From Antedon mediterranea (Eukaryota > Animalia > Echinodermata): a stretch of DNA of 64,000 nucleotides. Positions 6,721 to 54,100 of the stretch are shown here, piece after piece. Numbering within the stretch: the first letter of the stretch is position 1; each line of letters begins with the position of its first letter. The notes under the pieces are model-generated. The model made no database searches. It was not told the DNA's origin and was given only the letters and a program-made list of their open reading frames with translations. A program made the translations under genes and the position numbers. The stretch spans positions 16,847,432 to 16,911,431 of the forward strand of contig NC_092679.1 in NCBI RefSeq assembly GCF_964355755.1, written 5' to 3'.

Positions 6721-7077
6721 TCATAGACAGCCTATCTATATAAAATATTATTATTTCATTGCTAATGCCAAGGTATTATTTAGGCCTGTTTATTTTCAGG
6801 TTGAAAGCAATGGATAAAGAGAGATTCAATTCTACAACAAAAGTCAAACTCAAACTGATAATTAACAATGTTTCCAGTTAATTAATGTTAATTATTTTAA
6901 TAGATTGTAGTGACCCTAACTACCTTACTGTTTGTGTATGGCTGTAATATTATATTAAATGTCATCACAATTAGTAAGGTTGTGAGGCTTCACAATTTCA
7001 AACAACTCTTCACTTCTTCATGTGGATGGATTAAAAAATACTGTGAGTATTGTACACTCTTTATATGAATATATCAT

Positions 7078-9745
7078 CAATCACAATATCAAATATGATC
7101 AGTGTAGTCAAAATTTGATAACTTAGCATGAATCTTTTAATATCTACATCATCAATAATTAATATTAATATAAATCTACATCACAATGTTGGATATGATC
7201 TTTGTAGTCAAAATTTGATAACTGAGCACGCATCTTTTAATAACTACCTTATCAATAACTATTAATAATGTCCTATATCACAATGTACAGTAGGATATGA
7301 TCAGTGTTAGTCATAATTTGATAACTGAGCACGCATCTTTTAATATCTACCTCATCAATAATTAATATTAGTATCATATATCACATTGTTCGATATGATC
7401 AGTGAAGTCAGAATTTGATAACTGAGCACGCATCTTTTAATATATACCTTATCAATGACTATTAATAATATCCTATATCACAATGTTGGATATGATTAGT
7501 GATTAGATAAATGAGCACGCATCTTTCAATATCTATTTCATCAATAATTATTTGTATTTTGTATTTGTATTTTTGTATTTGTATTATAATAATTATTATT
7601 AATAATTTATATCACATTGTTCGATATGATCAGTGTAGTCATATTTGATAACTGAGCACGCATCTTTCAATATCTATTTCATCAATAATTATTTGTATTT
7701 TGTATTTGTATTTTTGTATTTGTATTATAATAATTATTATTAATAATTTATATCACATTGTTCGATATGATCAGTGTAGTCATATTTGATAACTGAGCAC
7801 GCATCTTTCAATATCTATTTCATCAATAATTATTTGTATTTTGTATTTGTATTTTTGTATTTGTATTATAATAATTATTATTAATAATTTATATCACATT
7901 GTTCGATATGATCAGTGTAGTCATAATTTGATAACTGAGCACGCATCTTTCAATATCTATTTCATCAATAATTATTTGTATTTTGTATTTGTATTTTTGT
8001 ATTTGTATTATAATAATTATTATTAATAATTTATATCACATTGTTCAATATGATCAGTGTAGTCATAATTTGATAACTGAGCACGCATCTTTCAATATCT
8101 ATTTCATCAATAATTATTTGTATTTTGTATTTGTATTTTGGTATTTGTATTATAATAATTATTATTAATATTATATCACATTGTTCAATATGATCAGTGT
8201 AGTCATAATTTGATAACTGAGCACGCATCTTTCAATATCTATTTCATCAATAATTATTTGTATTTTGTATTTGTATTTTGGTATTTGTATTATAATAATT
8301 ATTATTAATATTATATCACATTGTTGGATATGATCAGTGTAGTCATAATTTGATAACTGAGCACGCATCTTTCAATATCTATTTCATCAATAATTATTAT
8401 TAATAATTTATATCACATTGTTCAATATGATCAGTGTAGTCATAATTTGATAACTGAGCACGCATCTTTCAATATCTATTTCATCAATAATTATTTGTAT
8501 TTTGTATTTGTATTTTGGTATTTGTATTATAATAATTATTATTAATATTATATCACATTGTTGGATATGATCAGTGTAGTCATAATTTGATAAATGAGCA
8601 CGCATCTTTCAATATCTATTTCATCAATAATTATTTGTATTTTGTATTTGTATTTTTGTATTTGTATTATAATAATTATTATTAATAATTTATATCACAT
8701 TGTTCGATATGATCAGTGTAGTCATATTTGATAACTGAGCACGCATCTTTCAATATCTATTTCATCAATAATTATTATTAATAATTTATATCACATTGCT
8801 GGATATGATCAGTGTAGTCATAATTTGATAACTGAGCATACATCTTTAAAAATCTACCTCATTAATAATTAATATTAATAATCTATATCACACTGTTGGA
8901 TATGATCTGTTTAGTTTTTTAATATCTACCTTATCAATAACTATTAATAATATCCTATATCACAATGTTGGATATGATCAGTGTAGTCATAGTTTGATAA
9001 CTGTGAGCATACATATTTTAATATCTACCTCATCAATAATTATTATTAATAATCTATATCACAATGTTGGATATGATTAGTGTAGTCATAATTTGATAAC
9101 TGAGCACGCATCTTTCAATATCTATTTCATCAATAATTATTATTAATAATTTATATCACATTGTTGGATATGATCAGTGTAGTCATACAGTAATTTGATA
9201 ACTGAGCAAAAATCTTTTAATATCTACCTCATCAATAATTAATATTAATAATCTATATCACATTGTTCGATATGATCAGTGTAGTCATAATTTGATAACT
9301 GAGCACGCATCTTTCAATATCTACCTCATCAATAATTAATATTAATATCATATATCACATTGTTCGATATGATCAGTGTAGTCATAATTTGATAACTGAG
9401 CACGCATCTTTTAAAATCTACCTCATCAATAATTAATATTAATAATCATATCGCATTGTTCAATATGATCAGTGTAGTCATAAATTGATAACTGAGCAAA
9501 AATCTTTTAATATCTGCATCATCAATTAATATTAATAATCTATATCAAACTGTTGGATATGATCTGTTTAGTTTTTTAATATCTACCTTTTCCAAAATAA
9601 TATTCTATATCACAATGTTGGATATGATCAGTGTAATCATAGTTTGAACTACCTCAACAATAATTAATATTAATTGTCTATATACCAATATCAAATATCA
9701 GTGTAGGCCTAGTCATTTGATAACTGAGCATGCATCATTTTATAT
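7078..9745 (+). repeat. Tandem array of about 97-bp satellite; central units lengthened to about 140 bp
   Basis: Repeating core ATATCACATTGTTGGATATGATCAGTGTAGTCATAATTTGATAACTGAGCACGCATCTTT. Units at about 7510-8700 carry an added (TTGTATTT)n block. Confidence 0.95.
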
Positions 9746-9769
9746 CTGCTTCAAATATTAATATTGTCC

Positions 9770-11295
9770 GAATATAATAAGTGGTTTGAAGGATTTTTGC
9801 AGATGGCCTTTTTTGCATTGTAAAGTTTACACTTTAAAATCTGTCAATTTATCCAAAAAGGTCAAACTTTGACCTATTTCAATAAAATCATTTCATAAGT
9901 TGTCTTCTTTTATAGTTTTAGTGATAATCAATATTAAGTGGTTTTTTACCCCAAAAAAGTCAAACCTAGAGCTATTTTAATAAAATTATTTCATAAATTG
10001 TCTTCTTTTATAGTTCTAGTAGTGATATAATCAATATTAAGTGGTTTGGATGATGTTTGTGGGGTGTTTTTTTAAAGTTTGCACAGTTTACATGGTAAAA
10101 TGTGTCAATTTATTCCTAGAGCTATTTCAATAAAATTATTTCATAATCACCCCAAAAATGTCAAACCTAGAACTATTTTAATAAAATGATTTCATAAATT
10201 GTCTTCTTTTATAGTTCTAGTAGTGGTATAATCAGTATTCAATTGTTTGAATGATGTTTGTGGGGTATTTTTTAAAGTTTGCATTAAGTTTACGCAGTTT
10301 ACATGGTAAAATCTATCAATTATCCAAAATTGACATTTTTCACCCTAAAAAATCAAACCTAGAGCTATTTCAATAAAATGATTTCATAAATTGTCCTCTT
10401 TTATAGTTCTAATAATGATATAATCAATATTAAGTGGTTTGAATGATGTTTGTGGGTGTTTTTTTAAAGTTTGCATTAAGTTTACGCAGTTGAAATGGTG
10501 AAATCTGTAAATTTATCCAAAATTGGCATTTTCACCCTAAAAAATCAAACTTAGAGCTATTTCTATTAAATTATTTTATAAATTGTCCTCTTTTATAGTT
10601 CTTGTAGTGCTATAATCAGTATTAAGTGGTTTGAATAATGTTTGTGGGGTGTTTTTTTTAAGTTGGCATTAAGTTTACGCAGTTTACGTGGTAAAATCTG
10701 TAAATTTATCCAAAATTGACATTTTTTACCCAAAAAATTCAAACCTAGAGCTATTTCAATAAAATTATTTCATAAATTGTCCTCTTTTATAGTTCTTGTA
10801 GTGGTATAATCAATATTAAGTGGTTTAGATGATGTTTGTGGGGTGTTTTTTTTAAAGTTTGCACAGTTCACATGGTAAAATCTGTCAATTTATCCAATAT
10901 TGACGTTTTCACTCCAAAAAAGTCAAACCTAGAGCTATTTCAATAACATTATTTCATAAATTGTCTTCTTTTATAGTTCTAGTAGTGCTATAATCAGTAT
11001 TCAATTGTTTGAATGATGTTTGTGGGGTATTTTTTAAAGTTTGCATTAAGTTTACGCAGTTTAAATGGTAAAATCTGTCAATTTATCCAAAAATTGATAT
11101 TTTTCACCCGAAAAAATCAAACCTAGAGCTATTTCAATAAAATGATTTCATAAATTGTCCTCTTTTATAGTTCTTGTAGTGGTATAATCAATATTAAGTT
11201 GTTTGGATGATGTTTGTGGGTGTTTTTTTAAAGTTTGCATTACGTTTACGCAGTTTAAATGGTAAAATCTGTAAATTTATCCAAAATTGACATTT
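9770..11295. repeat. Tandem repeat, about 190-bp unit, about 8 copies
   Basis: AAACCTAGAGCTATTT recurs near 9962, 10163, 10355, 10547, 10741, 10925 and 11119. Confidence 0.9.
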
Positions 11296-12029
11296 AAAAA
11301 CACGAACTAGGTTGTAAAAAGTGAAGGAAGTCATTATATTTTATTATTGTTTGGTCTACCCATAGTTATAGCAGGGAAGAGTTAAATTTAACTCTTCCCT
11401 GGTTATAGGTAATAAAGGATGCCTATCATAGTCAAATGGCAATAACTGATTAGCCGAGACCAATGACATTTAAAACAACTCCTACTTAAAATTCCCTACT
11501 TATACAGTACAGCAGCTTTTTGATTGGCTGCAAGTTTAGTTTTCTGTTCGTTCATCAGAAATGGTATACATAATTATTAATCAATAAGATTACTGGATTT
11601 CTTTAGTATTTCTGACACATTTCCAATCTTAATTGAATTATTAATGTAATGGAAATTGGTCATAGGCCTATTATAGCAACATATCATTTCTGGAAGAGTA
11701 TTACGGTCTGTATAGATCGATGTTAAAACACACGTCCTCATTTATCAAATAATTCATTCACTGCACATTTATTCTGTTAAGAAGAACTGGGACCCTCAAT
11801 AGAAGCCAAAGCATGTCTCATGATGGCCTCTACAATACATATCAAACATAAAAAGATATGGAATATTTTTATTTTTACAGCGGCACACGTTCATCATAAA
11901 CGATGCGTTCTTAAAAGTATAAATTTAAACAGCAAACGGATACAAATCAATAGGGTAATTAGGAACAAAAGAATAACACATTTTCAAAACCCATCGACTC
12001 GATCTCTTGTATACAGTAAATCTAACAAA

Positions 12030-15000
12030 ATCACACTGATCATATCCAACATTAAGTATTAATAATTATTATTGATTAGGTAGATAATAAAAGATGCGTT
12101 ATATCAATTTATGAATACACAGATCATATCCAACAATGTGATATAGATTATTAATAATAATTTTTAATGAGGTAGATATTTAAAGATGCGTGCTCAGTTA
12201 TCAAATTATGACTACACTGATCATATCCAACAATGTGATATAAGACATTAATAATAATTATTGATGAAATAGATATTTAAAGATGCGTGCTCAGTTATCA
12301 AATGACGACTACACTGATCATATCCAACAATGTGATATATGATATTAATATGAATTATTGATGCGGTAGATATTGAAAGATGCGTGCTCAGTTATCAAAT
12401 TCTGACTACACTGATCATATCCAACAATGTGATATATGATATTAATATAAATTATTAATGAGGTAGATATTTAAAGATACGTGATCAGTTATCAAATTCT
12501 GACTACACTGATCATATCCAACAATGTGATATATGATATTAATATAAATTATTAATGAGGTAGATATTGAAAGATACGTGATCAGTTATCAAATGACGAC
12601 TACACTGATCATATCCAACAATGTGATATAGATTATTAATATTAATTAATGATGTGGTAGATATTAAAAGATGCGTGCTCAGTTATCAAATTCTGACTAT
12701 ACTGATCATATCCAACAATGTGATATACGATATTAATATAAATTATTAATGAGGTAGATATTGACAGATACGTGATCAGTTATCAAATGACGACTACACT
12801 GATCATATCCAACAATGTGATATATGATATTAATATGAATTATTGATGCGGTAGATATTGAAAGACGCGTGCTCAGTTATCAAATTCTGACTACACAGAT
12901 CATATCCAACAATGTGATATATGATATTAATATAAATTATTATTGAGGTAGATATTAAAAAATACGTGCTCAGTTATCAAATTATGACTACACTGATCAT
13001 ATCCAACAATGTGATATATGATATTAATATTAATTAATGATAAGGTAGATATTGAAAAATACGTGATCAGTTATCAAATGACGACTACACTGATCTTATC
13101 CAACAATGTGATATATGATATTAATATAAATTATTGATGACGTAGATATTAAAAGATGCGTGCTCAGTTATCAAATTCTGACTACACTGATCATATCCAA
13201 CAATGTGATATATGATATTAATATAAATTATTAATGAGGTAGATATTAAAAGATGCGTGCTCAGTTATCAAATTCTGACTACACTGATCATATCCAACAA
13301 TGTGATATATGATATTAATATAAATTATTAATGAGGTAGATATTGAAAGATGCGTGCTCAGTTATCAAATTCTGACTACACTGATCATATCCAACAATGT
13401 GATATATGATATTAATATAAATTATTATTGAGGTAGATATTAAAAGATACGTGCATGCTCAGTTATCAAATTCTGACTACACTGATCATATCCAACAATG
13501 TGATATATGATATTAATATAAATTATTAATGAGGTAGATATTGACAGATACGTGATCAGTTATCAAATGACGACTACACTGATCATATCCAACAATGTGA
13601 TATATGATATTAATATGAATTATTGATGCGGTAGATATTGAAAGACGCGTGCTCAGTTATCAAATTCTGACTACAGAGATCATATCCAACAATGTGATAT
13701 ATGATATTAATATAAATTATTATTGAGGTAGATATTAAAAAATACGTGCTCAGTTATCAAATTATGACTACACTGATCATATCCAACAATGTGATATATG
13801 ATATTAATATTAATTAATGATGAGGTAGATATTGAAAGATACGTGATCAGTTATCAAATGACGACTACACTGATCATATCCAACAATGTGATATATGATA
13901 TTAATATAAATTATTATTGAGGTAGATATTAAAAGATACGTGCTCAGTTATCAAATTCTGACTACACTGATCATATCCAACAATGTGATATATGATATTA
14001 ATATAAATTATTAATGAGGTAGATATTAAAAGATACGTGCTCAGTTATCAAATTCTGACTACACTGATCATATCCAACAATGTGATATATGATATTAATA
14101 TAAATTATTAATGAGGTAGATATTTAAAGATGCGTGCTCAGTTATCAAATTACGACTACACTGATCATATCCAACAATGTGATATATGATATTAATATAA
14201 ATTATTAATGAGGTAGATATTGAAAGATGCGTGCTCAGTTATCAAATTCTGACTACACTGATCATATCCAACAATGTGATATATGATATTAATATAAATT
14301 ATTATTGAGGTAGATATTAAAAGATACGTGCTCAGTTATCAAATTCTGACTACACTGATCATATCCAACAATGTGATATATGATATTAATATAAATTATT
14401 AATGAGGTAGATATTTAAAGATGCGTGCTCAGTTATCAAATCACGACTACACTGATCATATCCAACAATGTGATATATGATATTAATATAAATTATTATT
14501 GAGGTAGATATTAAAAGATACGTGCTCAGTTATCAATTTCTGACTACACTGATCATATCCAACAATGTGATATATGATATTAATATAAATTATTAATGAG
14601 GTAGATATTTAAAGATGCGTGCTCAGTTATCAAATTACGACTACACTGATCATATCCAACAATGTGATATATGATATTAATATAAATTATAATTGAGGTA
14701 GATATTGAAAGATGCGTGCTCAGTTATCAAATTATGACTGCACTCATCATATTCAACAATGTGATATAGGATATTAATAATAATTCTTAATGAGGTAGAT
14801 ATTGAAAGATACGTCCTCAGTTATCAAATTCTGACTACACGGATCATATCCAACAATGTGATATATGATATTAATATAAATTATTAATGAGGTAGATATT
14901 GAAAGATGCGTGCTCAGTTATCAAATTCTGACTACACTGATCATATCCAACAATGTGATATATGATATTAATATAAATTATTAATGAGGTAGATATTGAC

Positions 15001-16496
15001 AGATACGTGATCAGTTATCAAATGACGACTACACTGATCATATCCAACAATGTGATATATGATATTAATATAAATTATTAATGAGGTAGATATTGACAGA
15101 TACGTGATCAGTTATCAAATGACGACTACACTGATCCTATCCAACAATGTGATATATGATATTAATATAAATTATTGATGACGTAGATATTAAAAGATGC
15201 GTGCTCAGTTATCAAATTCTGACTACACTGATCATATCCAACAATGTGATATATGATATTAATATAAATTATTAATGAGGTAGATATTAAAAGATGCGTG
15301 CTCAGTTATCAAATTCTGACTACACTGATCATATCCAACAATGTGATATATGATATTAATATAAATTATTAATGAGGTAGATATTGAAAGATGCGTGCTC
15401 AGTTATCAAATTCTGACTACACTGATCATATCCAACAATGTGATATATGATATTAATATAAATTATTAATGAGGTAGATATTAAAAGATGCGTGCTCAGT
15501 TATCAAATTCTGACTACACTGATCATATCCAACAATGTGATATATGATATTAATATAAATTATTATTGAGGTAGATATTAAAAGATACGTGCTCAGTTAT
15601 CAAATTCTGACTACACTGATCATATCCAACAATGTGATATATGATATTAATATAAATTATTAATGAGGTAGATATTTAAAGATGCGTGCTCAGTTATCAA
15701 ATTACGACTACACTGATCATATCATCAACAATGTGATATATGATATTAATATAAATTATTAATGAGGTAGATATTTAAAGATGCGTGCTCAGTTATCAAA
15801 TTACGACTACACTGATCATATCATCAACAATGTGATATAGGATATTAATATAAATTATTAATGAGGTAGATATTAAAAGATGCGTGCTCAGTTATCAAAT
15901 TCTGACTACACTGATCATATCCAACAATGTGATATATGATATTAATATAAATTATTATTGAGGTAGATATTAAAGGATACGTGCTCAGTTATCAAATTCT
16001 GACTACACTGATCATATCCAACAATGTGATATATGATATTAATATAAATTATTAATGAGGTAGATATTTAAAGATGCGTGCTCAGTTATCAAATTACGAC
16101 TACACTGATCATATCCAACAATGTGATATAGATTATTTATATTAATTTTGATGCGGTAGATATTTAAAGATGCGTGCTCAGTTATCAAATGACGACTACA
16201 CTGATCATATCCAACAATGTGATATAGATTATTAATAATAATTATTGATGATGTAGATATTAAAAGATACGTGCTCAGTTATCAAATTATGACTACACTG
16301 ATCATATCCAACAATGTGATATATGATATTAATATTAAAATTGATGACGTAGATTCTAAAAGATGCGTGCTCAGTTATCAAATTATGACTACACTCATCA
16401 TATTCAACAACGTGATATAGATTATTAATAATAATTATTGATGAGGTAGATGTGAGATGCGTGCTCAGTTATCAAATTGTAACTACACTGATCATA
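12030..16496 (-). repeat. Tandem array of the same 97-bp satellite in reverse orientation (about 46 units)
   Basis: Unit AAAGATGCGTGCTCAGTTATCAAATTCTGACTACACTGATCATATCCAACAATGTGATAT is the reverse complement of the left-array core. Period 97 (e.g. 13201 to 13298). Confidence 0.95.
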
Positions 16497-26100: not shown

Positions 26101-29100
26101 ATAATCCGGTGAATATTGTAGTGAGTAAAATATTGTACTCTAAAATACGCGCGTGTTTGTTGTGGCGTTTTCCGTTAAATACATTAATGCACCCTATCAG
26201 CGAATGGTACGTTCCATATTTTGAACACGTTGTTTAGTTTTCCTCGCTCGAGTTCGACCGGCTCGACGCGAGATGTGTGACAGCAGCGATGTCGGAGATT
26301 GACATGTCCTTTTCCGTCGTAGAATATCTGGTTTTACACATTAATTTAACAACTTAAAATTGATGTAATGTGCGGAAGATTTATTATGCAAGTATACAAT
26401 GCAAATGCGTTAGGTTAAAATGTACCGAGGAAATTTATTAAGCTAATTTACCAACGTTACATTTGACTCTGTATACGGCGGCCGAAAGTCATTAACTGCG
26501 ACCGAAATACTTTAACGGAGCGACTACTGATCGCGAGTAAGCCGTGACTTGGCCTAAACTTTAGCTCCGTATTTCAATTTAATAACGTAATAATACGAAA
26601 AGAAAACAATTTTTATAATGTTATATATACTATTCAGGTAAACAATTAATTGTTTTAATTAACATTGATTATTTTAAATGAGTTTATTTTGACCCATACT
26701 GTGCGTTTGCCTTAAAAGAGCATATTTTACTTAGCAGCCCGGCTTAGATTTGGTGTCATAATCATATGGGCCTAAAATCTTGTTTTACGTATTCAAAAGT
26801 TATATATAATAGTATTTATGATTGAAATTATAAATATAAAGTATATTAAAATATTCTAATAATTATACTTACCGAAAATTAGTGTAAAAGAAAGGAAACA
26901 GTACACACCGTTTTTAACATACTTTTTCATTTTTTCTTTTTATAATTTTAAATTTCACCATTAAAACAATTTTTTTTTTTCATATACACATCTAAAATAT
27001 ATTTATTAATGAAATATACACTACATTCTAACAAGTACAAAAAAAAATTCAATGAATTAGTACAGTAGTTCAAAAGTTACAGATCATTGAAAAATAGCAG
27101 TTTTTTCATTTTTTTAGGGAATTCCAGCAAAAATGGGCGTTAAATGCTTTCCTACCACTTTGCGGACCAATAATTTAAAAAATAGGTTTCGTTGAGGCTC
27201 CAAAAAAAATAGAGTTGTACAGTCTATATCGTGCCTAGCTTACCTGGATAAACCAACATAAGCCTCTCTCTCCGACGAGAGGTAAACATTACGAAAAGAA
27301 GAACATTAATAACATTAATTTTTCCCCACCCCCGTCGGATAATGGATCAGTCCGCCACCAGTACGCCCTCAAGTGAGACACACCCACTTATCATCGTCAT
27401 CATTTCTTTTCGTAACGTCGTTGTGTACGTACGTCTTTTCTGAACACATTCCTGGAATTCCTGAGGAATTTGCGATAAAGACTTTATACTGTAGACTGGA
27501 AGAGAAGAATAGAGCAAGAAAACGAAGCTAAGTGTAGTAGATCGTTATCTTGTGGTTGGATACGTTTAGAATCGTTACCCTTGGCTAGTTGCCAGGAGTT
27601 AAAATTTAGCGTTGTAAGCCGTTATCCAGTGTGTTTCACCTGGATAGAAATACTGGAAGATCTTTTGTTGTTCGTTAGGCTAGTGGGGAAAAGTAGGTCT
27701 GTTAGATCACCATGCCTAAGCAGGAGTGTGTTAAATGTAGGGGTCCCCGCTCTACCGTGAAGTGGGACCGCCACTTGGAGTGCATAAATTGCCGCACGTG
27801 TACCGAGTTGTCGCCGTGCGATGTTTGTGTCCGCTGGACACCGTCCAAGTTCAAATCGCTCACTAGGCCTAAAGAACGCACGGAAGCTGTACCACCTCCG
27901 GAGGTGGGTACCGCTGATACGGCAGGCCCTCCTGTCGTTGCGCCGGAAGTTAGCCTTCCAGATATGCCTGCACCGGCTGCGGCCTCTGCGGTTCCGGGGG
28001 TGAATGAGATTTCTCCGGGGTTACTGCAAGCCATTGTTGCAGCTGTGAGAGCTCTGCCGAGGGATGAGCCTGAGGTACCCTCTCAGATTAGACCTCCTCC
28101 CCAGATTCCATACATTGATGTTGGCCCACAGCAGACCTCGTTTTTCGATGGTTCGTCCGTCCGGCAAAGGGACTACGATAGTGACAGGACGATGGCCTCG
28201 CTCTCTGACGATGATAGAGATAGCTTACGAGAGCAGGCCGGGCCAGGGGAGGAAGGTCTGCAGGCGCTAGTTATGCGGACGGTCCCCGCGGTGCTGTCCT
28301 TTCTCGGCGTCGATTTCACGTATCGCGAGCCTAAACATACTCCTTCGTCTAAGCGGTTTTCCACTTTTGGCGTACGCACGCCCTTTAAGAAGGTATCTTC
28401 GTGCCCGGTTACGCCTCTCGATCCAGAACTTGTGGAACGTGTGGAGCTGATCGCTAAGGAGTCCAAGATTCGTAGGCCTATGCCTTATAGCCTGTCATCG
28501 GCTTTTCCGGTGCCGCAGAAACAATTCGAACTGTACATCGCGGCGCCGAGCGTCCCGGAGGCAGCGAAGGAACGGGTCCGTGAGGACCAGAACCTGGACC
28601 CGTCCAGGACTAATTTTTTGAAGCCTTCGGAATCCCGCACAGAGGACGTCCTTACGTCCGTCGACAGGGCCGCACGCGAGACGCTTAGAGCCGCCTCTAT
28701 GGCCGGGTACTTGCTATCCTTTCTGGCTGATCCAGAACATCCGCCCCAGGGCGATTCGGACGTGATAGCTCTACTACAGCAGATCATGGGCCTGGTTGTT
28801 GATCAACAGGCAACGATCTCATTATCTGCGGCCGCGGCCCGTCGCGTTAACGTCTTGGGTGCAACTGACATCGCACCGACCGATTTCCGTAGGTTTACTA
28901 CGTCTGACTCCTTCGGGGCGCAGGACTTGTTCTTTGGCTCCTTCTCACAGAAGGAAGATAAATGGGCCCGTGAGAGGGAAGCTCGTCGGGAGACAAGAGC
29001 GCGCTTCCCGCAAAAACGCCGAGCTAGCAATTCACGCTCAAGGACAGCCGCACGACCGCCGCCTGCCCCTGCTGCTCCTCAGCAGATGCAGCCTCCCCCG

Positions 29101-32100
29101 CCGCCACCGGCTCAGCCTATGCAAAGTCAGGCTTCTACATCAAGACAGGCTTCACACCCCCCTCGCGGAATGCGAAATAGGGGTGGCAAAGGCGCCACCA
29201 ACAGGAGTGGTCGCCGGTATTATAATGTGAAGCGCCGGTGACGGCTTGGGGGCGCCCGTCCCTCCAAGCGAGGGCGGGCAGGTGGGGGGTCGCTTGAAAC
29301 GGTTTTCACGGGTTTGGGAGACCCTGACCACAGACAGATGGGTTCTCTCCACCGTGACACACGGGTATCGTATCGAATTCTCGAGCCCTCCGGTGAGCGG
29401 AGGTGCCCGGCACACGAGGATTCCGTCAGAGCCGGAAAAGAGTCAAGCGCTCATGACGGGCCTCGAAGCACTGCTCCAGAAAGGAGCTGTGGTGCATGTT
29501 CAAAAAGAACAACTTACGATCCCGGGACACGAATCCACCGTTTTCCTCGCCCAGAAAAAATCGGGCGATTGGCGACCCATCCTAAACCTCAAAAGTCTGA
29601 ACAAGCGGTACATTCGGCCCCGCAGGTTCAGGATGGAGACTGTCTCATCTATCCTGTTGGGGCTAAGACGAGGGGACTGGGCAGCCACAATAGACTTGAA
29701 AGACGCGTACTTTCACGTGCCTATTGCGCAAGAACACCAGAGTTGGCTGCGCTTCCGCATTCACGATCAGGTATACCAATTCGTAGCTCTGCCGTTCGGC
29801 CTCTCAACGGCCCCACGAGTGTTTACTCGTCTAGTGAGAACCCTGGCGGCGTTCTTTCATCAACACGGCATCAGAGTGTTCATGTACTTAGACGATTGGT
29901 TGATCGTGGCCCAGTCCAGGGACCAGCTGCTGAGCAGCTTATCTTTTGTCCGCCTCGTGACGGAACAAGCAGGGTTCATAATAAACGAGGAGAAGTCATG
30001 TCTTCTCCCTTCTCAGAACCCTCTGTATCTCGGAGCCCAAATAAATTTGGTTACGGGCCGTGCGTGCCCATCCATCGAGCGTGTGGCCAAGGCAAGAACT
30101 GCAGTGCTACATCTTATCAATGCTCAGGCTCCGACGGCGTACGACTGGCTACGCACCTTGGGGTCACTGGCCAGCTTCGTCGCCCTCGTTCCGTTCTGCC
30201 GGTTAAGGATGCGGCCTCTACATCTGCACCTTCTGGCAGCATACCGCCCAAGATCAGACTCTCTACACAAGGTGGTTCCAACGAATGCGTTCATTATCTC
30301 GCATCTCGAATGGTGGCTCGTGGAAGACAGGTTACTTGTGGGCACACCTATACAAAGGTCAATTCCGGAGGTCCGTGTGGAAACGGACGCATCCGAAGTA
30401 GGCTGGGGCGGTCACATACCGTCTCCGGACATTCGCGTCTCCGGCCTCTGGTCGCCCGAGGAGACGCGCGCCCACATCAACCTGCTCGAACTTTGGGCAG
30501 TCGAGCGCTCATTGGAGGCTCTTCTTCCCCATCTGGCAAATCGCCATGTTCTCGTCAATTCCGACAACACAACCGTCGTGGCATACATAAACAGGCAAGG
30601 GGGTACACGGTCCCCCACGCTATGTTGCCACACGTGGACGTTGCTAATGTGGTGTATAAGACACAACATCCAACTGTCAGCGGCCCACATTGCGGGTCGT
30701 CTGAACATAGTGGCGGACGCACTGTCCCGTCCACTTCTACGTCCTACGGAATGGCGTCTTCTTCCAATAATCGCCACCCAGATCTTCAACCACTTTGGGC
30801 GGCCCCATGTAGATCTGTTTGCGACGTCAGGCAACACGCAGCTCCCGACGTTCTGCAGTCGATATCGGGATGCACATGCGTGGGCGGTGGATGCCCTGTC
30901 CATACCATGGGACAACCTTTGGGCATATGCCTTTCCACCGATTTCAATACTGCCACTGGTCCTGACGCACATTCAGCGCCATCAATGCCGAGTCCTACTA
31001 ATAGCGCCGTATTGGCCCAGGCAGCCGTGGTTTCCACTGCTTCTAGGCCTTCTGTACGATCAGCCGTTACGTCTTCCGATTCGGAACGACTTGCTGACGC
31101 AGGGCCGAGCTCGGTTTGCTCTACCGAACCTCATATCCCTCGACCTGACTGTATGGCCATTGTCAGGGATCGTTTCAGAGACTCAGGCATTCCAGATGGT
31201 CCGGCCGCCCTCGCGGCGAAATCCCGACGGGAATCCACTCTTGCTGTCTACAATAGCCGATTAAAACACTTTTTCGAATGGTGCAAGCGCCAGAAGACCG
31301 ACCCTATGAAAGTGACTTTGGGCCAGGTCTGCGCTTTCCTACATTACCTGTTTGAGTCAGGTCTGCAGGTTCGCACCGTATCCGGCTATCGGTCTGCCTT
31401 GGCTGCAGTAATTCCGAATTTTAAAGACGGCTCGACCATCTCTTCATCCCCTGCAATTTCCAGTTTGCTTCGCGGGATGTTTCGAGAACGGCCTCCTACT
31501 AAGGCCCTGATTCCACGTTGGGACGTCAATGTCGTCCTAGCCGCTCTTATGCGTCCACCCTTTGAGCCCCTGAGTAGGGCATCACTTTACAACCTGACTC
31601 TCAAAACTGCCTTTTTGATTGCACTAGCCTCGTGCAAGCGCAGAGGTGAACTGCATGCTCTTTCTCTGGAGCCAGGGCACATCAGGTTTGAACGGGGTGG
31701 CGCGCGGTTGGTTTTTAGAAAAGATTTCCTTGCAAAATCTCAGACATTGAACTTCTCGCCGCCGACTGTGTTTATTCCCACCATTGCTGCATATTCAGGG
31801 GTTGAGGAAGACAGACTTTGGTGCCCGGTGCGGGCACTAAAGTTTTACATCAAACGCACAGAGTCCATTCGGGTCTCAGCGTCACATCTGTTCGTATCGA
31901 CAGTTGCACCCTTCCGACCGGCTGCTCGGTCGACGCTGGCAAACTGGGTCGTGGCAGCCATCCGGGCTGGTTACGACTCCACAGATACGCCTCCTCCGGC
32001 ACATATGCACCAAGTGCGTGGCATAGCCGCTTCATGGGCGCTGTTTGCTGGGGTGCCCCTTCCAGACATCCTGCAAGCGGCATGGTGGCGATCACAGTCC

Positions 32101-35100
32101 ACCTTCACATCCCACTACCTGTCGGATACCTCCGCAAACCAGTCTACGGTGGCGGCTTTAATCTTGAAGCCCAGACACTAGGTATGTATGACAATGTTTA
32201 CCTTGCCTCCCGCCTCCGACTAGACTCTAGTCCGGTGCTACACTGGCTTATGTTGGTTTATCCAGGTAAGCTAGGCACGATATAGACTACACAAACCAAC
32301 AGTGGTGTTGGTAGTCTATGAGTGCCGCTTACCTGGATAAACGCCCTCCCTACCGTCCCCTCAGGCAGGTGGTCTTGAGAAATGATGACGATGATAAGTG
32401 GGTGTGTCTCACTTGAGGGCGTACTGGTGGCGGACTGATCCATTATCCGACGGGGGTGGGGAAAAATTAATGTTATTAATGTTCTTCTTTTCGTAATGTT
32501 TACCTCTCGTCGGAGAGAGAGGCTTATGTTGGTTTATCCAGGTAAGCGGCACTCATAGACTACCAACACCACTGTTGGTTTGTGTAACTCTGTGATATCT
32601 ATAGGTTTAACAAAATTCAAAACTTTTAACTAATTATTGTAAAAGTTATAACCTTTTAAAAATGCTTCCAATTTCAACTGCAAAAAACACCATTTTTAGG
32701 CAAAAAATCGTATATTTTTTTACCACTTTAAATAACCATAACTTTAGAACGGGTAATCGGATTTCAATCATTTAAATCGCAAAATGCTAATTACATTAAG
32801 TTCTTTATGGTTAACTGAAAGAAAATGTAAAAAAATTAATCTGAATTTTTTCATTGGGATACCTACTTGTAATAAGACTTTGTTTATGTAGAACATCTTG
32901 TGATGTTTGTGTTGTTTACAGGATTCCCACCTTTAAGAAAGATAGTGAATGAATTTATCCTTGTAAATTCACCTAAATATAAAAAAAAACTTTTTATTAA
33001 AAATGGAAGTGGCAATTCATTGAATAGAACAATCTTTCAACGTATAAAAATATCCTTCCCATTCATAAACTATGACATTGCTAGAAAAGAAATAGACTAT
33101 AAGAATTACAAAACGAATTACTCTTTAGTGTTCTCAATTTAGTTTCTGTTTTTGTATCAAAAGATCAGCCCCTTTTTTTGTGTTTTTTTTATGGGCATTT
33201 TATCACAATAATATTATTTTCACTTGGCAAGGGCATAATTTGAGATAAAATCCTGAAAAAGTCAAAAATACAAATTGATATAAATCGCCTTCATACAATC
33301 AAATGTGCAATCTTATCATGAAAGCTATTTTTACCGTTGAACAGTGAAATTTCACTTGTGTAAAACAGAAAGTACTCGTCGGTACTTCTAATATTTTGGC
33401 AACTTATTCAATGTAGTCGTGACACCCCTTTGATAACCTGTACGTTTAGATATGCACTTAAATCTGAACTATAAATCATTTTAGTATCCTGTTTTTCTTT
33501 CTTTTTCTATTCAATGATAAGTTGGTATTCTTATTATGTACCTTTACTTGGCATTAATGTCATTTTTAATACCCTAAAAAATTCAGATGTACTGTAAGCT
33601 CACCCTGAGTTTTGATTAATTAATTTTACGCACACACAGGAGCACACGGTTTCATAGACAGTATGAAATTGGTATTAAACGTGGTTCCCACTAGTACGTC
33701 AAGCAACGTAAGAAAATGCCCTTCAAATAATTGTGTTTTCCCCTGCGTCAGAAAATCAAAACCTGATTGTTGTACTTCAACATTGCCGTAGACTTTAACC
33801 TGGTTTACTCCACATACTTTTGAGTACGTGTTGTACTACTGTATTTTTCCACTGTTCGTTTGCGTTGCTGCATGAAATCAAACTGATTTGATTTCTTGTA
33901 GCGATGTTTTGCAGCACTGTTGCGTCATTCGTTCCCACTTGTGATTGCGCAAATATAGCACTCTGCGTCGATACGTCACTGCATTGTGTTCTAGTGGGAA
34001 TCACACTTTAGACTTACACATTGTTTTCAAGAACACAATTTTGTACAATTGCTAAAAATATTATCTGTTGATATAAGTTTGCGGTACACCACGTATGTCG
34101 ACGTTTCGATCAATATGCTTTGATCGTCCTCAGGAGTGTGAATGCAGAAAGTCATGTACCGCAAACTTTTGATTTTGATTTTTGCCATGCAAATTACTAA
34201 ATAAATGCGTGAATCTCACAAAAATAAATGCATATTTAGTTCAATTATGAGATTAAAAACAAGCAGAACTTCCTTTTGTATAGAAACTGCTATCTTGCTT
34301 ATGTTTACATTTCATTTTATAGTTGTCAGTTTCTCCCTTTATTTAAATTAATTATTTATTTTGCACGGATTGGTAAACTACTTTTAATTCCTGAGCTCAC
34401 GTTCATTCTGTTTAATTAAGATACTAATCACTTAGTAGGAAAGATGCGATATTGATTAATATTTGGTTTGATGTTTTATTCATCTTTTTCATCATTTTTC
34501 ATATTAATTTATGACATGTTTTGTACGGAATCTAAATTAAAGTTAAATTACGATTTTCTTGCTACCAGATTCCGGCTTCAGTCTGAATGTTTAGACTTAG
34601 ACTCGCGCTTATTTGATCAGATTTATAAAACAAATAAATTAATACAATTAATAGAATCCAGTAATAGGTTGTTGACAGATTTGTTTATATTATGTTAATT
34701 AGGCAAGATAAAAGAATACCTAACCAGTTACCCGAGGGCGTATTAGATAATGTTCTTTCGTCGTTTGAATTACTTGGAAGTGAAAACGTTGAAGAAACCG
34801 AAAATGGTGACCTAGAAGATGGCGGTACAGCAGATGACGAGGCTGATGATAGTATGAACAAGAATATGGCAACTATTATTAAAAGGAAAAAGGTAATTTA
34901 ATTTTTTATAATAATTGTTACATAATATACATACTACAAGAGAAAATGTCTGTATGTATCGTTTTTTTAAAATAATAATATTTTTTGTTTGTATAGTGCC
35001 ATTCCAACGATCATTGATCATGGCGTAGACTTGCCCAAGTCTGTAGTTATTGTTTTTTTTATGTTAGTCCACCAGTCGGCTTTTTGATGTTTGTCTGAAA

Positions 35101-44100: not shown

Positions 44101-47100
44101 GTATGGATTCTACTATTTGTTGTTGGGGTATGCCAGATATAAATATGGATCCATATGATTCCTATGGTACGTACAATTGTCGGTAAATGTTACAAAAGTA
44201 ATCTGCCGAAATTACATATAAGATAAGATAAGATAACTTTTATTGATCCTCAAAAAGGAAATTCATTGCTCGTCATAATAACAAAGAAAACACTATAAAA
44301 ACAAATATAGCATAAAACCATTCATATAAAAACATCTAAAAAATTACAATATAAAATTATCTTCTTGACTTCCTGTTGTACTGGATGATACCGGAGGGAA
44401 TAAAGGATTTAGCAAATCGATTTGTTTTCACACTGAGGAGCCTCAATCTACCACTTGGATTAAGTTGGTCTATGATCACTTTGTGGAGAGGATGAGAGGC
44501 ATCCGACTCAATGCGTTCGAAATCTTTCTGGAGGTGTTCTAGGTGCACTTCGGTAAAGGAAGGCAGTTCCAGACCAATCATTTTACCAGCCCGACGGATG
44601 AAAGTTTCAAGGCGTCCTTTATTCCCTCCGGTAACATTACCAGCCCAACAGGAGAGGCAATACGTCCAAACACTACATATAACGGATCTATAGAACGAAA
44701 GTAACATCAAATCACAGGAGTTAAATTTATATAAAGTTCTCATACAATACATTCTGGGACTTAATTTTTTGCTGATGAAGTCTATATGGTCTCCCCAACT
44801 CAGTTTATCATTGAAAACAATTCCTAGATACTTGTACTGGTCAACAATTTCAATTTCTTTACCTTTGATAGTGATTGGTTGAAAATTAAATTTATGTTTA
44901 GTCCTAAAATCAATGATCATCTCCTTTGTTTTTGATGCATTTATTTGGAGATAATTATCGTCACAAAATTTAACAAATCTTTGTATTTCGCTACGATAAT
45001 TTTCATCATTGTTTGAAACTATGAGACCAATAGTGCTAGTGTCATCAGCGAATTTAACAACGGGGCAAAGCTCATCATTTAAAGATCTGTAATCCGCCGT
45101 ATACAAGGAATATAATTTAGGTGCGTTGACAGTACCCTGAGGAACACCGGTGTCAGAGGTTACGATTTCTGACTTAACACCATTAATATTAACAAATTGT
45201 TTTCTATCACAAATGAAATTTAAAACTAAACGAACAATCGGACGGGGAAACTCCATATTCAACATTTTGTCTGCTAAGATATGGGGTTGTATGGTATTAA
45301 ACGCAGATTGAAAATCAAAATACATAATACGTGCCGAGTGGCCTTTCTTTACATTATCTAGATGTGAATACAATTTATGTAATTTAAAATAAATCGCATC
45401 ACTGGTACTACGGAGTGATCGGTAAGCAAATTGCAACGGGTCTAACACTTTTTCAGCATAAGGTTGCATAATTTTTAAAATAATACGTTCCAATATTTTC
45501 ATCGCGACAGACGTGAGTGCAACGGGTCTCAAATCATTCATGCAGTTAATCTTAGGTTTCTTAGGTACCGGTATTATGCATGAAAGTTTCCAAATATCCG
45601 GGAACGCATGATAAGAAAGACACATATTGAAAATAAATGTAAATATACCATCAAGGTGAGGAGAGCAGACCTTAAGTACTCGTGGTGGATTTAATGGACT
45701 TAAACAATTTTTGTTTGCCTAAATTACGTTGATTTACATATTATTATTATTATCTTTATTTCCCAGATTGCAGTATATTGAAAGAACCATTGATCGGCCA
45801 CACCAATGCAGTGTGGGATATCGCATTCGACGCCACCAAAAACCACCTTGTATCGGCCTCGGCTGATGGTACTGTAAGGTTATGGAACCCTCAACAGAAG
45901 TCTCCACTTCTAAATAAGTACATTGGAGAAAAATGTAAGATATGATATGGTTTATCTCTCAGTCATATCTCATGACTAACAATACGGTAGAACCTCTATT
46001 TAAGGGACACCTTCGTGACCAAACAACTTTGATTATCATATTTCATCATTGTCTTGTCTTTCTTTAGCCTATGGAGTTCCAACCACTGTTGATTTTGTAC
46101 GCTGTGACCCGTGTCAAATTATCGTTGGCTACAAATCCTCAGATGCTGTCATCTATGACCTGGAGACAGCGAAACCAGTGATAACGCTAGATAGCAAGTT
46201 ATTGTCCGACACTGATGGAACCACACAGATTAATTGTGCAATTAGCCACCCAACTCTACCTATAACCATTACTGCACACGAGGACAGACACATACGCTTC
46301 TTTGATAATAATACAGGTAAATCATATATGTCTCTATACCACAAATAACATACATAAAATGTTTACAAAATCTGTTTTATCTTTGTATTTGTGATTTTTA
46401 TTTGTTTCTGTCTTTTCCGTTGGTTTCCTGTATAATTTTTACCGTTTTTAAATACTTTTATCAGTTTATACATTTTAATGTAAATACACAGTAATTCAGC
46501 TTCGGCTGCGGCAGTGATATGAATAAAAGAATATACTCAAATAATGGTTCTATTTTATAACGGCTTCATAGTGGTCTAAATAAACTAGAAAATGTGAATT
46601 GTCATGCATATTTCTATTCATGTTTTAGGTAAAATGGAACACAGTATGGTGGCTCATTTGGATGCTGTAACTAGCCTGGCCATCGATCCAAATGGATTAT
46701 ATCTCCTATCTGGAAGTGAGTATTTGAATAATGTCTTAACTGGTTTGACAAAAGTGTGATGTGCCCAAATATGGTAGTCATATGCCCAAATATAGTAGTG
46801 ATATGACATCATCATGTCCATATATATGGGCACATCACATAGTTTGACAGAGCTTTAGACCAATATGCTCTACGGTAACTACAATACTTTGAACCCATCT
46901 TTTTCTGTCTTGTTGTGTTTGACCAGATTCTTTACTTTCATTGCCTCGTCCTTTGGATGGGACATGATGTCACTGGTCCTTTTTTTAAAATTTTAATGGA
47001 TGTGGTCCAATAGGTGGTCTAATTCGGTGCCATTCTTTATAGATGATAGGTAAATGCCTACATAATAATTTACAACCTAATTAATATATTTTTATAGTTA

Positions 47101-51126: not shown

Positions 51127-54100
51127 ATGGGGGTCGAAACGGAGATTGCCAAGACACTGCAGGAGCGGATTATGATCTTTGATGGTGGAATGGGTACAAT
51201 GATTCAAGCATTAAAATTTGATGAAAATGAGTTCCGTGGCGAGGAGTTTAAAAATCATCCAAAATCATTGAAGGGTAACAATGATCTGTTGTCTCTTACA
51301 CAAGCAGATGCCATCTTAAAGATACATAAGGTATGATTGAACATTTAAAAAAAATGTAGTGTCTAGTCATAGATGCAATCCCCATGCTATACCTATGACA
51401 ACAAATTTTTTTTACTAAAGAAGATACTATGAGTTTCGAACCGTAGCCTAATGCTACAGCATGATGTTGCGAAACCCAAGCTACCGACCAGCTTACAGTA
51501 CAATGCAACGACATTAGTTTTTTATCTAACGTCATTGGTGGCACTATATACATAGATATACTGTAGTCTGGAGATTGTATCTACGACTAGTTGTAGATGC
51601 AGCCAGTTTGTTAAAAAAAATAAGATAATAAATTATTTGATTTTGTTGATTGCATAAAGCTCTGTCAACACTATCAATCTTTATGTGACAAAAAAATGTG
51701 ATGTGCCCATATATGCCCATGATGATGTCATATAACTACCATGTTTGGGCATATCACTACCATATTTGGACACATCACACTTTTTTTGTCAAACTAGTTT
51801 GATAGTGTAGACAGAGCTTAATGTGGCATTTGTTCATTTTATTAATGCAACATGCTACGCTCGATGGTCTTACCTTTGACATCCGGAAACTGGTTTTGAC
51901 AATTTTCTGTATGGATAACAATTTCTTTCCTTCTTAAAAATTAAAAACAAATATAGATATAAAAGGCAAGGAAAGACCAAACAGGTGCTATTTACATGTA
52001 TGCTAATTGGTCAACCAAAAACTGATAAAAACAAGATAAATAAATATCTACAAATTACAATATTTAGACGGTCTTTTAATATAAAAGGTCTTAAAAAACA
52101 TTGGAAATCATGATATATGTTGGCCTACTGTATGTCTGATTTTGTCAAAAACTCTAACCTGTGTCAACTGCAACAAATTCCACAGTCTTGAAGTTTTTCT
52201 CCTCACTTGTAGTAGGGGTATCCTTAGTATCGACAGGTAATGTCTATTTTCATTTTTATCATATTTCAGGATTACCTACTAGCAGGTTCCGACTTTGTTG
52301 AAACAAATACATTTAGTGGAACCAGTGTTGCACAAGCTGACTATGGATTAGAACACATTGTAAGTATTATTTTTATTTGAGTATAGGCCTACATGTATAC
52401 CTTTAATTAAAGACGGCCACCCAGCAAAACCCTGCCAGCCTGGGGAGGAGATAGGCACCACTTGGAGATATGACTTTATGCCTGTGTATCATATCATAAT
52501 GCTCGTACAACTACTGTATCTCATCTGCAACGCATGGGGCAAGAGAGGACGAGAGAATTGTTTTTAAAGATTTTGATTTACTATATTATTTCACTCACAG
52601 GTTTACCGATTAAATAAAGAATCAGCACAAATAGCTAAAAAGGCTGCAGAGGAAGTGACTAAAGAAACAGGTGTCCAACGCTATGTTGCAGGGGCTTTAG
52701 GGCCGACTAATCGTACACTATCCATCTCACCATCTGTTGAACAACCAGAGTTTAGAAACATAAGTATGTTTATTCATTGGATTCTAGTCTCATATCAAAA
52801 TATTGAATTGTAAATCTATGCTAATATATTTCATTAATAATGCTTATATATTAGTAAGTGAGTGGCCGAGCGGTTAAGACAGTGGAACCGTAATTACATA
52901 GCCATAACATCGGCAGGGGTTCAAGGCTCACTCACTCATGGTTCTGGTGGTAGAACGAGTCTTCTCGGATAAGGACTATAAACCGTAGGTCCAGTGTACA
53001 CATCTAGCTCGTGTGCACTTTAAAGAACCTAGTACATCTTTCGAGACGAGTAGGGGGTTACCCCGGTGTATTAGTACATCATAGCCACTGATCATAACTG
53101 AGCCCTCCGGGAGACCAGTATTTGACTGAAGAGGTCACCCAGTATAAATATATATTTCAATCAATCATAAACCTTATTTTGTTGAGTCAAGTGGTTAAAG
53201 CAGGCTGAGGAACACTCTGCAAACCATGTTGATATTGGCCCAGGTTCCAGGCTTCTCGGTAAAGAAGACTTAAATTAGGGTTATCCTGGTCCATATACAC
53301 CTAAGCCCATTTAGTGGTAGTTCTGCACAAAGGGAAAGTGTACACTATCAAACTAGTGTGATGTGTCTAAATATAGTAAGTGATATGACATCATCATGTC
53401 CATATATGGGCACATCACATTTTTTTGTCACATACAGTAAAGTTTGATAGTGTAGACAGAGCTTTAGGGAAGATAAAAGTCCACTGCACTTTAATACGTA
53501 AAGCATTATAAGCAATTTACAGCATATTTATTATTCTAGAATCTGGTGGTAATTTTTTACTAGGCCATTTAGCACAGATTTTTGACCAGCAAATGTGATT
53601 TTATTAACAATTTATATGCAATGCTGGTATTAAATCCAATCATATTAAGTATTCAAACAAATTATGAAAGATGTTTTTTTTTGTGATTTTTGAACAATTA
53701 AATTTTGAAATTTTACAAAAAATGTTTTGAATTAGTAGAGGCATACACAAAGCAAATTATGAAAAAGCGTTATTGTGTAGTTTTAAACACTAAATTCAGA
53801 AAATACTATGAAATTTGATAATGTATAAAAGTTAACATATTACCGTGTAATGTTTGTTTATTAGCTTTTGATAAACTAGTCGAGGCATACACAGAGCAAG
53901 CAAAAGGACTACTAGACGGCGGTTCAGATGTTTTACTCGTAGAGACTATATTTGACACGCTTAATGCAAAAGCCGCCCTCTATGCTATCCAGTTGCTTTT
54001 TGAGAGTGAATACGAACCAGTTCCACTCTTTGTAAGTAACAACCTATACAGTTTCTTTCAGCTCAACTACACTAAATTTTTAAGTTTAAATAATTTATAT

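Follow-up and report, generated by a model that had tools for sequence, protein, structure and literature searches.

A single gag stop codon in animal DIRS1-like retrotransposons as a candidate three-way switch between termination, readthrough and frameshifting

A 64,000-nucleotide stretch of the genome of the echinoderm Antedon mediterranea (contig NC_092679.1, positions 16,847,432 to 16,911,431; hereafter the window, to which all positions refer) contains a complete and intact DIRS1-like retrotransposon (27222–32587). In this element, a single UGA separates gag from an in-frame tyrosine recombinase (YR) frame, and a reverse transcriptase (RT) frame located at +1 is open across the same codon. 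An earlier note on this DNA had proposed that the UGA is a three-way switch between termination, readthrough into YR, and a +1 shift into RT. Comparison with related elements leads us to lean modestly towards this proposal in full, in which the stop would support both recoding events together. Taken separately, readthrough and entry into RT at the stop are each probable. Readthrough is the better supported half of the proposal, the +1 shift being argued from family statistics and by exclusion.

Results and discussion

The gag stop junction in the window

The gag frame extends from the ATG at 27712 to the TGA at 29239–29241, ending in CGC CGG TGA, and is followed by CGG. Beyond the UGA, the same frame is free of stops from 29242 to 32181, and readthrough would generate a product of 1489 amino acids (aa). 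The RT frame, located at +1, extends from 29231 to 31264 and has no AUG before codon 75 (29453), which lies downstream from the conserved VGGRL..F..W block. Omission of the U of the UGA gives GAC GGC TTG GGG, which is the RT frame, and a fusion of 1183 aa. Recheck of the coordinates and lengths given in the earlier note for the gag/YR junction and the readthrough product revealed no discrepancy, and the position of the RT frame, its late first AUG, and the length of the fusion were confirmed. Between 29242 and 31264, the YR frame contains no stop, versus 36 in the third frame, indicating that the double open frame is not due to chance.

Compared with the window, the deepest contig of the family shows differences at 29246, 29247, and 29252, which alter amino acids in both frames, and retains the gag UGA, the CGG that follows it, and the RT-frame stop at 29228. 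A diverged sibling from the same organism showed three differences in the 63 nucleotides (nt) at 29224–29286, the preceding 97 nt being too diverged to be aligned. A second sibling, represented by a 30-letter loose end only, suggests a gag shorter by two residues, with UGA-CGG retained and the RT-frame stop one codon upstream.

Conservation of the junction in related elements

An alignment of 52 RT proteins was used to fetch 80 metagenome loci displaying 37–50% RT identity to the window. Anchoring at VGGRL was obtained for 76 of these loci (L026, L040, L051, and L062 were dropped), resulting in a set of 77 elements including the window. Sixty-three of the 77 had the layout of the window, namely gag followed by a single stop, with the YR frame in phase with gag and the RT frame at +1, and no extra in-frame stop was present in any of them. 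These elements were clustered into 53 families at 80% RT identity, and into 47 and 39 groups at 70% and 60%, respectively. The statistics reported below are based on families and ignore kinship; since the families are related, the p-values overstate independence. Neither random frame relationships nor stops just after gag, the patterns that the earlier note had set against its own proposal, were seen in the siblings. The frame relationship, the leaky stop, its 3' context, and the openness of the frames were retained in the 53 families, as that note had anticipated; about five additional families departed from it by having RT in frame.

The remaining 14 elements comprised seven that were broken, cut, or fused and seven with RT in frame with gag, one of which (L073) is a copy of a majority-type family with a one-base deletion. 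In a further hold-out set of 10 loci, of which seven could be anchored, all seven had the majority layout, with UAG (five loci) or UGA (two loci), and never UAA, as the gag stop.

Several candidate natural fusions were not taken into account. Locus L078 contains gag and YR in a single open frame with a UUC-UGA-CUC junction lying beside an A7 run in the RT frame, indicating that compensating indels are likely. The fusions present in P0097 (Gag-RT) and P0046 (RT-YR) are single-copy and resemble indels. A search for natural Gag-YR fusions of more than 1389 aa gave one unrelated host gene model, a weak and uninformative result. No relative was found in viral contigs, which contained one unrelated RT locus (L081, excluded). 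Ten DIRS-like RT loci (L082–L091) had been assigned to genome bins of bacteria (Sedimenticola, Brevinema, SUP05, and others), the likeliest explanation being misbinning of eukaryotic host DNA.

Identity and context of the gag stop

The gag stop was UGA in 42 families, UAG in 11, and UAA in none, to be compared with UAA in 14 of 29 YR terminators (p = 4e-8). On an RT tree (a quick tree of 74 rows restricted to census elements, with L043, L056, and L080 left out and L023 as a frameshifted long branch), the UAG stops were scattered over many separate clades and UAA was found only in one family with RT in frame. C was the next base after UGA in 29 of 42 families versus 68 of 291 third-frame UGAs, and G came after UAG in 8 of 11. 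The commonest hexamer was UGA-CUA (9 of 53 families), and 11 of 53 had exactly CGG, as in the window, or CUA after UGA. One relative had UAG-CAA-CCA. The pattern of stop identity and context persisted at 70% and 60% clustering. UGA-CGG and UGA-CUA are type II readthrough contexts and UAG-G is a type III context (PMC3159437; papers are cited by PMC number for the portions of their text that were available).

The UA dinucleotide after UGA-C is reported to stimulate readthrough specifically (PMC9841425). The base following UGA-CUA was C or U in all nine junctions and CUAG never occurred, an observation of modest value alone since C or U represented 22 of 34 in the background. CUAG, the stronger motif for readthrough, would bring the +1 frame to an immediate end, and mutation of CUAG to CUAC, introduced in PMC9841425 to keep the +1 frame open, led to the loss of over half of the readthrough. 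Asp-Tyr, which is the +1 reading of UGA-CUA, was present in 13 of 62 usable RT N-terminal extensions (from 120 proteins) versus 1.1 in shuffles, partly in the same elements. Together, these comparisons of sequences indicate that the gag stop is selected to be weak.

The codon preceding the stop was also biased. Its second and third bases were identical in 38 of 53 families, in comparison to a background of 26%, to 15.6 expected given the amino acids, and to 7 of 29 codons at the YR end. The bias recurred in the hold-out loci (6 of 7). The codons that support the antizyme and RF2 shifts (UCC, CCC, UUU, GUU, and CUU, according to PMC1874602) preceded the stop in 19 of 53 families versus a background of 9.6% (p = 2e-7), in 14 of 39 groups at 60% identity, and in 2 of 29 codons at the YR end.

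Both enzyme frames are open from the stop

Over the initial 600 RT codons, the YR frame of 35 intact elements contained no stop, versus 723 under synonymous permutation of the RT codons. From the gag stop to the first YR AUG, which is located 8 to 543 codons downstream, no YR-frame stop was present in 5346 codons from all 53 families; the third frame contained 294 stops. From the gag stop to VGGRL, the RT frame contained one stop in 1018 codons, versus 15.8 ± 2.9 and 29.8 ± 5.1 in two shuffles. An AUG upstream from VGGRL was absent from the RT frame of 26 of the 53 families and was located between the stop and VGGRL in only five. The intervening spacers of 13–223 nt are open in two frames and display no conserved AUG or acceptor. 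Upstream from the gag stop, the RT frame of the other 52 families is usually open for at least 33 codons. This openness was rejected as a signal, the composition of the gag tail accounting for it (27 stops seen, 24.5–28 expected). The window is the only element in which the RT frame closes three codons before the gag stop, which pins the entry into RT to the stop region or later.

RNA structure

Folding was analyzed with a program that cannot predict pseudoknots. The loop of the hairpin predicted downstream from the UGA of the window (Table 1) could pair with 29291–29296; the letters of this loop differ in the loose end of a sibling. In the families, the best post-stop hairpin averaged -17.6 kcal/mol, gag tails with a similar GC content giving -14.2 kcal/mol, and the shuffle z-scores were unremarkable. 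The best-folding region consisted of the 60 nt preceding the gag stop (mean z of -1.4, with 18 of 53 families under -2; z of -1.35 in a codon shuffle versus -0.9 in a control region). In the element under study, a hairpin predicted at 29211–29241 (region 29181–29241) takes in the UGA. A pseudoknot is not supported as a general feature, folding after the stop being unremarkable both in the window and in the families.

Proposed mechanism and alternative explanations

According to the proposed mechanism, most ribosomes would terminate at the gag stop, thereby releasing Gag. Slow termination would let a near-cognate tRNA read the stop, giving rise to Gag-YR, and some ribosomes would move by +1 at the stop onto the overlapping GAC codon, giving rise to Gag-RT. 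A slip of -2 would also lead into the RT frame; we infer that the +1 movement is the one that would be used. Through fusion to Gag, RT and YR would be delivered to the particle in small and fixed amounts.

Several observations weigh against this mechanism. The peptidyl-site (P-site) codon of the window, CGG, is unique in the set and is not among the known shift codons, NGG codons are not enriched before the stop (3 of 53), and an antizyme-type codon was present in only one of the seven hold-out loci. The 16 of 53 pre-stop codons of the NAA class provide no argument for a shift since NAA is also a known readthrough context. Likewise, stop identity cannot separate readthrough from shifting because a weak stop favors both. 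The region 29239–29360 of the window folds no better than shuffles (z of -0.78, and of -0.2 in the family test), and no general 3' structure was detected in the families (mean z of -0.8 after the stop versus -0.4 to -0.9 elsewhere). The analogy with antizyme drawn in the earlier note is not supported in its details, the codon not being a known shift codon and a conserved pseudoknot lacking support. In a reporter, the similar-looking junction of Tca2 gave no readthrough (PMC2194720). Finally, six loci belonging to five families (L044, L057, L032, L075, and L059/L061) place RT in the gag frame and YR at -1, indicating that the RT and YR frames can swap. This minority layout occurs at four places on the RT tree, among majority-type elements, and the gag stops of these families are still leaky in appearance. 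An A-AAA-AAC heptamer in the RT/gag frame was found only in L057 and L032, the latter having a 167-codon spacer open in both frames.

The early AUGs of the YR frame also count against readthrough as the only source of YR, and they bear on an alternative in which the weak stop would serve only the +1 shift into RT, YR being translated mostly from its own early AUG (29338 in the window) by reinitiation or from a shorter RNA. The base preceding the codons of two early RT tryptophans (codons 12 and 20 past VGGRL) was A in 36 of 98 cases versus 157 of 790 elsewhere (p = 4e-4), and 34 of 52 families, including the window, carry an early YR-frame AUG at these tryptophans. Since such AUGs are enriched, YR may also start independently, free of Gag. 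In addition, the first AUG past the gag stop belongs to the YR frame in 27 of 53 families, and shorter sense DIRS-1 RNAs have been reported in Dictyostelium (PMC3950715). However, 18 of 52 families lack an early AUG of this type, the YR frame is free of stops up to the gag stop in 53 of 53, and the top hexamer, UGA-CUA, is readthrough-specific. A purine was present at position -3 of the first YR AUG in 27 of 52 families versus 32 of 33 gag starts. We consider this alternative unlikely.

Also improbable is the reverse alternative, in which YR would be produced by readthrough and RT would be entered just downstream through splicing to an acceptor site, through initiation at a non-AUG codon, or by ribosomes that read through the stop and then shift within the spacer. 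The window, with its lack of a known shift codon, would be compatible with such a route. A pyrimidine-rich YAG was found in 26 of 53 junction regions versus 16.6 in base shuffles, and a near-cognate codon in good context preceded the V of VGGRL in 24 of 53, a figure with no null comparison. The YAG excess vanished in a codon shuffle (25 versus 23.1 ± 2.9), and a conserved splice acceptor was rejected since there was no enrichment once codons were kept. No AG occupied a conserved position with respect to either the stop or VGGRL. Downstream entry also leaves unexplained the bias for shift codons before the stop, and the RT frame is already open at the stop itself. UAA-C, which is the best fit to the branch-point consensus, was absent from all 53 families. 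A function of the stop in splicing, whether as branch point or as donor, was rejected (no UAA-C; donor-like motifs in 13 of 53 families versus 7 in a control region), as was stop-start reinitiation because the AUG of A-UGA lies in the closed third frame.

The absence of any recoding, in which splicing or subgenomic transcription would supply the RNAs for RT and YR and the junction would owe its pattern to inheritance or to composition, is the least likely possibility since, although junction sequences can hide promoters, as in Tca2 (PMC2194720), and although composition does account for the openness of the RT frame upstream from the stop, it fails on the lack of UAA in 53 families, the 3' context, the pre-stop bias, and the two frames open over variable spacers, and the same signature recurs in the hold-out loci.

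Extension of the three-way switch to the animal DIRS1-like group as a whole appears to us finely balanced. In this group, one stop would be a selected switch combining a weak 3' context with a slippery P-site codon, a few lineages having swapped the in-frame enzyme. These elements would then form a natural gene family that depends on readthrough as well as frameshifting at one and the same stop.

Comparison with known systems

The element has the organization of DIRS1-like elements such as Dictyostelium DIRS-1, with inverted repeats, an internal complementary region, gag, RT/RNase H, and YR genes, and a long RT/YR overlap (PMC3266345, PMC7192593, and PMC5633606). The overlap of the open reading frames (ORFs) is described in these three papers and in PMC9210276, PMC3783388, PMC6681497, PMC3950715, and PMC5941688. 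In the available portions of these eight papers no translation route was found, nor, in the first three, a fixed gag/YR frame, stop context, or codon bias.

The UGA-CGG of the window, followed by a hairpin at 12 nt and by an in-frame enzyme ORF, is similar to the type II (alphavirus nsP3/nsP4) and type III (gammaretrovirus UAG-G) readthrough sites (PMC3159437 and PMC13517186). It differs from these sites by the second frame, at +1, that opens at the same stop, and by the nature of the product, a recombinase rather than a polymerase. As in the antizyme and RF2 shifts (PMC1874602 and PMC9841425), the second ORF is at +1, open across the stop, and devoid of a start of its own, and shift codons are enriched in the relatives. 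In contrast to these systems, the window codon is CGG, a pseudoknot is not supported, UAG is also used, the 0 frame is a selected gene, and there is no known regulatory ligand. The junction may therefore work like antizyme, although it is not assigned to antizyme-type sites because of its CGG codon. One stop also separates gag from the enzyme in gag-stop-pol retroelements (murine leukemia virus (MuLV) and Candida Tca2; PMC2194720), which are matched by the minority families with RT in frame. In these retroelements, one stop leads to two products, whereas three are required in the majority layout, in which RT lies out of frame.

The literature search revealed no account of recoding in DIRS elements, the founding papers (Cappello 1985; Goodwin and Poulter 2001, 2004; Poulter and Butler 2015) being those that may mention the in-frame stop. 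The term DIRS does not occur in a review on readthrough (PMC13517186) or in the portion examined of a review on frameshifting (PMC5009743), and the readthrough mentioned in a zebrafish preprint is transcriptional. The junction is a conserved feature of a known class of elements, for which the proposed mechanism of expression is probably new to the literature. It offers a specific and testable answer to the question of how DIRS elements translate two overlapping and often start-less enzyme ORFs from one RNA, with about 60 natural junction variants on hand. If true, the three-way switch would explain why the unconserved extension of the YR frame, about 640 codons across RT, stays open. It would also be a natural case of a stop at which each of the three outcomes, termination, readthrough, and a +1 shift, yields a required protein; the competition between these events has so far been dissected with engineered reporters (PMC9841425). 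A practical consequence is that the starts of these RT and YR proteins are wrongly placed by gene callers.

Other features of the element and of the window

Table 1. Coordinates of the DIRS1-like element and of its parts.
Feature	Position	Strand	Description
Full-length DIRS1-like tyrosine-recombinase retrotransposon	27222..32587	+	Ends placed where contigs have loose ends (27222 and 32587); the flanks beyond are AT-rich and differ
Left inverted terminal repeat	27238..27407	.	170 nt, 100% complementary to 32378–32547
gag-like ORF1	27712..29241	+	509 aa; Cys-rich N-terminus, basic R/G/Q/P tail
Last stop in RT frame	29228..29230	+	TGA; confines RT entry to the last three gag codons or later
Proposed recoding site CGG-UGA-CGG	29236..29244	+	P-site codon, stop, and type II readthrough triplet; based on sequence and family statistics; motif classes from the available part of PMC3159437
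RT/RNase H/(methyltransferase) frame	29240..31264	+	+1 relative to gag; 674 codons from the GAC overlapping the stop; first AUG at 29453
YR frame	29242..32181	+	In frame with gag; 979 codons; overlap of about 640 codons with RT; recombinase C-terminal
Predicted 10-bp hairpin	29254..29279	+	Starts 12 nt past the UGA; -18.5 kcal/mol alone; also part of the predicted fold of 29239–29360; candidate role
First YR-frame AUG	29338..29340	+	Codon 33; created by an A just 5' of the codon for a conserved RT tryptophan; may serve as an alternative start
Internal complementary region	32245..32342	.	Left part pairs with the left element end, right part with the right end
Right inverted terminal repeat	32378..32547	.	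Pairs with the left repeat

The GC content of the element is 55–57%, versus about 32% in the flanks, the surrounding host genome being AT-rich and apparently of animal type. In the internal complementary region, 32245–32294 pairs with 27215–27264 (96%) and 32288–32342 with 32532–32586 (100%). Contigs from four runs, representing at most two samples, span the whole element with many different flanks, indicating that it belongs to a multi-copy family. Run X1, which may be an RNA run, displayed the same variety of flanks as the other runs. In runs X1–X5, the contig depth of the terminal repeats and internal complementary region (27200–27410 and 32090–32600) was more than 10 times that of the coding part, and contig joints at the ends of the element skip most of it. 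These deep ends may reflect many related or non-autonomous DIRS derivatives in the organism, or repeats that were counted twice. GT..AG ends were absent from the contig joints examined (15 of 59, and four of four in a second set), a result that has no bearing on splicing.

The Gag protein matched no Pfam family and displayed weak BLASTP similarity to the gag ORFs of 12 relatives (best E value of 5e-9); the only match obtained in a homology search with Gag was the protein of the window itself. The RT frame contains RVT_1 (E = 6e-23) and RT_RNaseH (E = 0.0035) domains, the latter being matched in 52 of 52 members of the RT alignment at E ≤ 1. Among 7995 candidates, 2004 RT homologues were retrieved at E ≤ 1e-20, the nearest named proteins being from echinoderms (48–55% identity). 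For the adenine methyltransferase expected after RNase H, the protein of the window had no Pfam match, and Dam and PCIF1_WW were matched in 9 and 5 of the 52 alignment members, respectively, at E ≤ 1. DLF and FPP motifs were picked out by eye. The YR domains are located at residues 658–962, approximately, of the YR frame and matched four integrase/SAM families with E values of 4e-4 (Phage_int_SAM_1) to 0.018 (Phage_integrase), all under the curated cut-offs. The YR region is conserved in the relatives, and its frame is always -1 relative to RT in intact copies.

Elsewhere in the window, a 453-codon open frame on the minus strand (44357–45718) resembles, by eye, a fragment of a reverse transcriptase of the long interspersed nuclear element (LINE) type. 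A stretch of an open frame on the plus strand (53822–54214) bears a resemblance to a methionine synthase exon, and the DIRS element may sit in or near that host gene. A 97-nt AT-rich satellite occupies 7071–16496, with 45.8 copies at 12057–16496 (92% matches), and a 194-nt array is located at 9943–11295.
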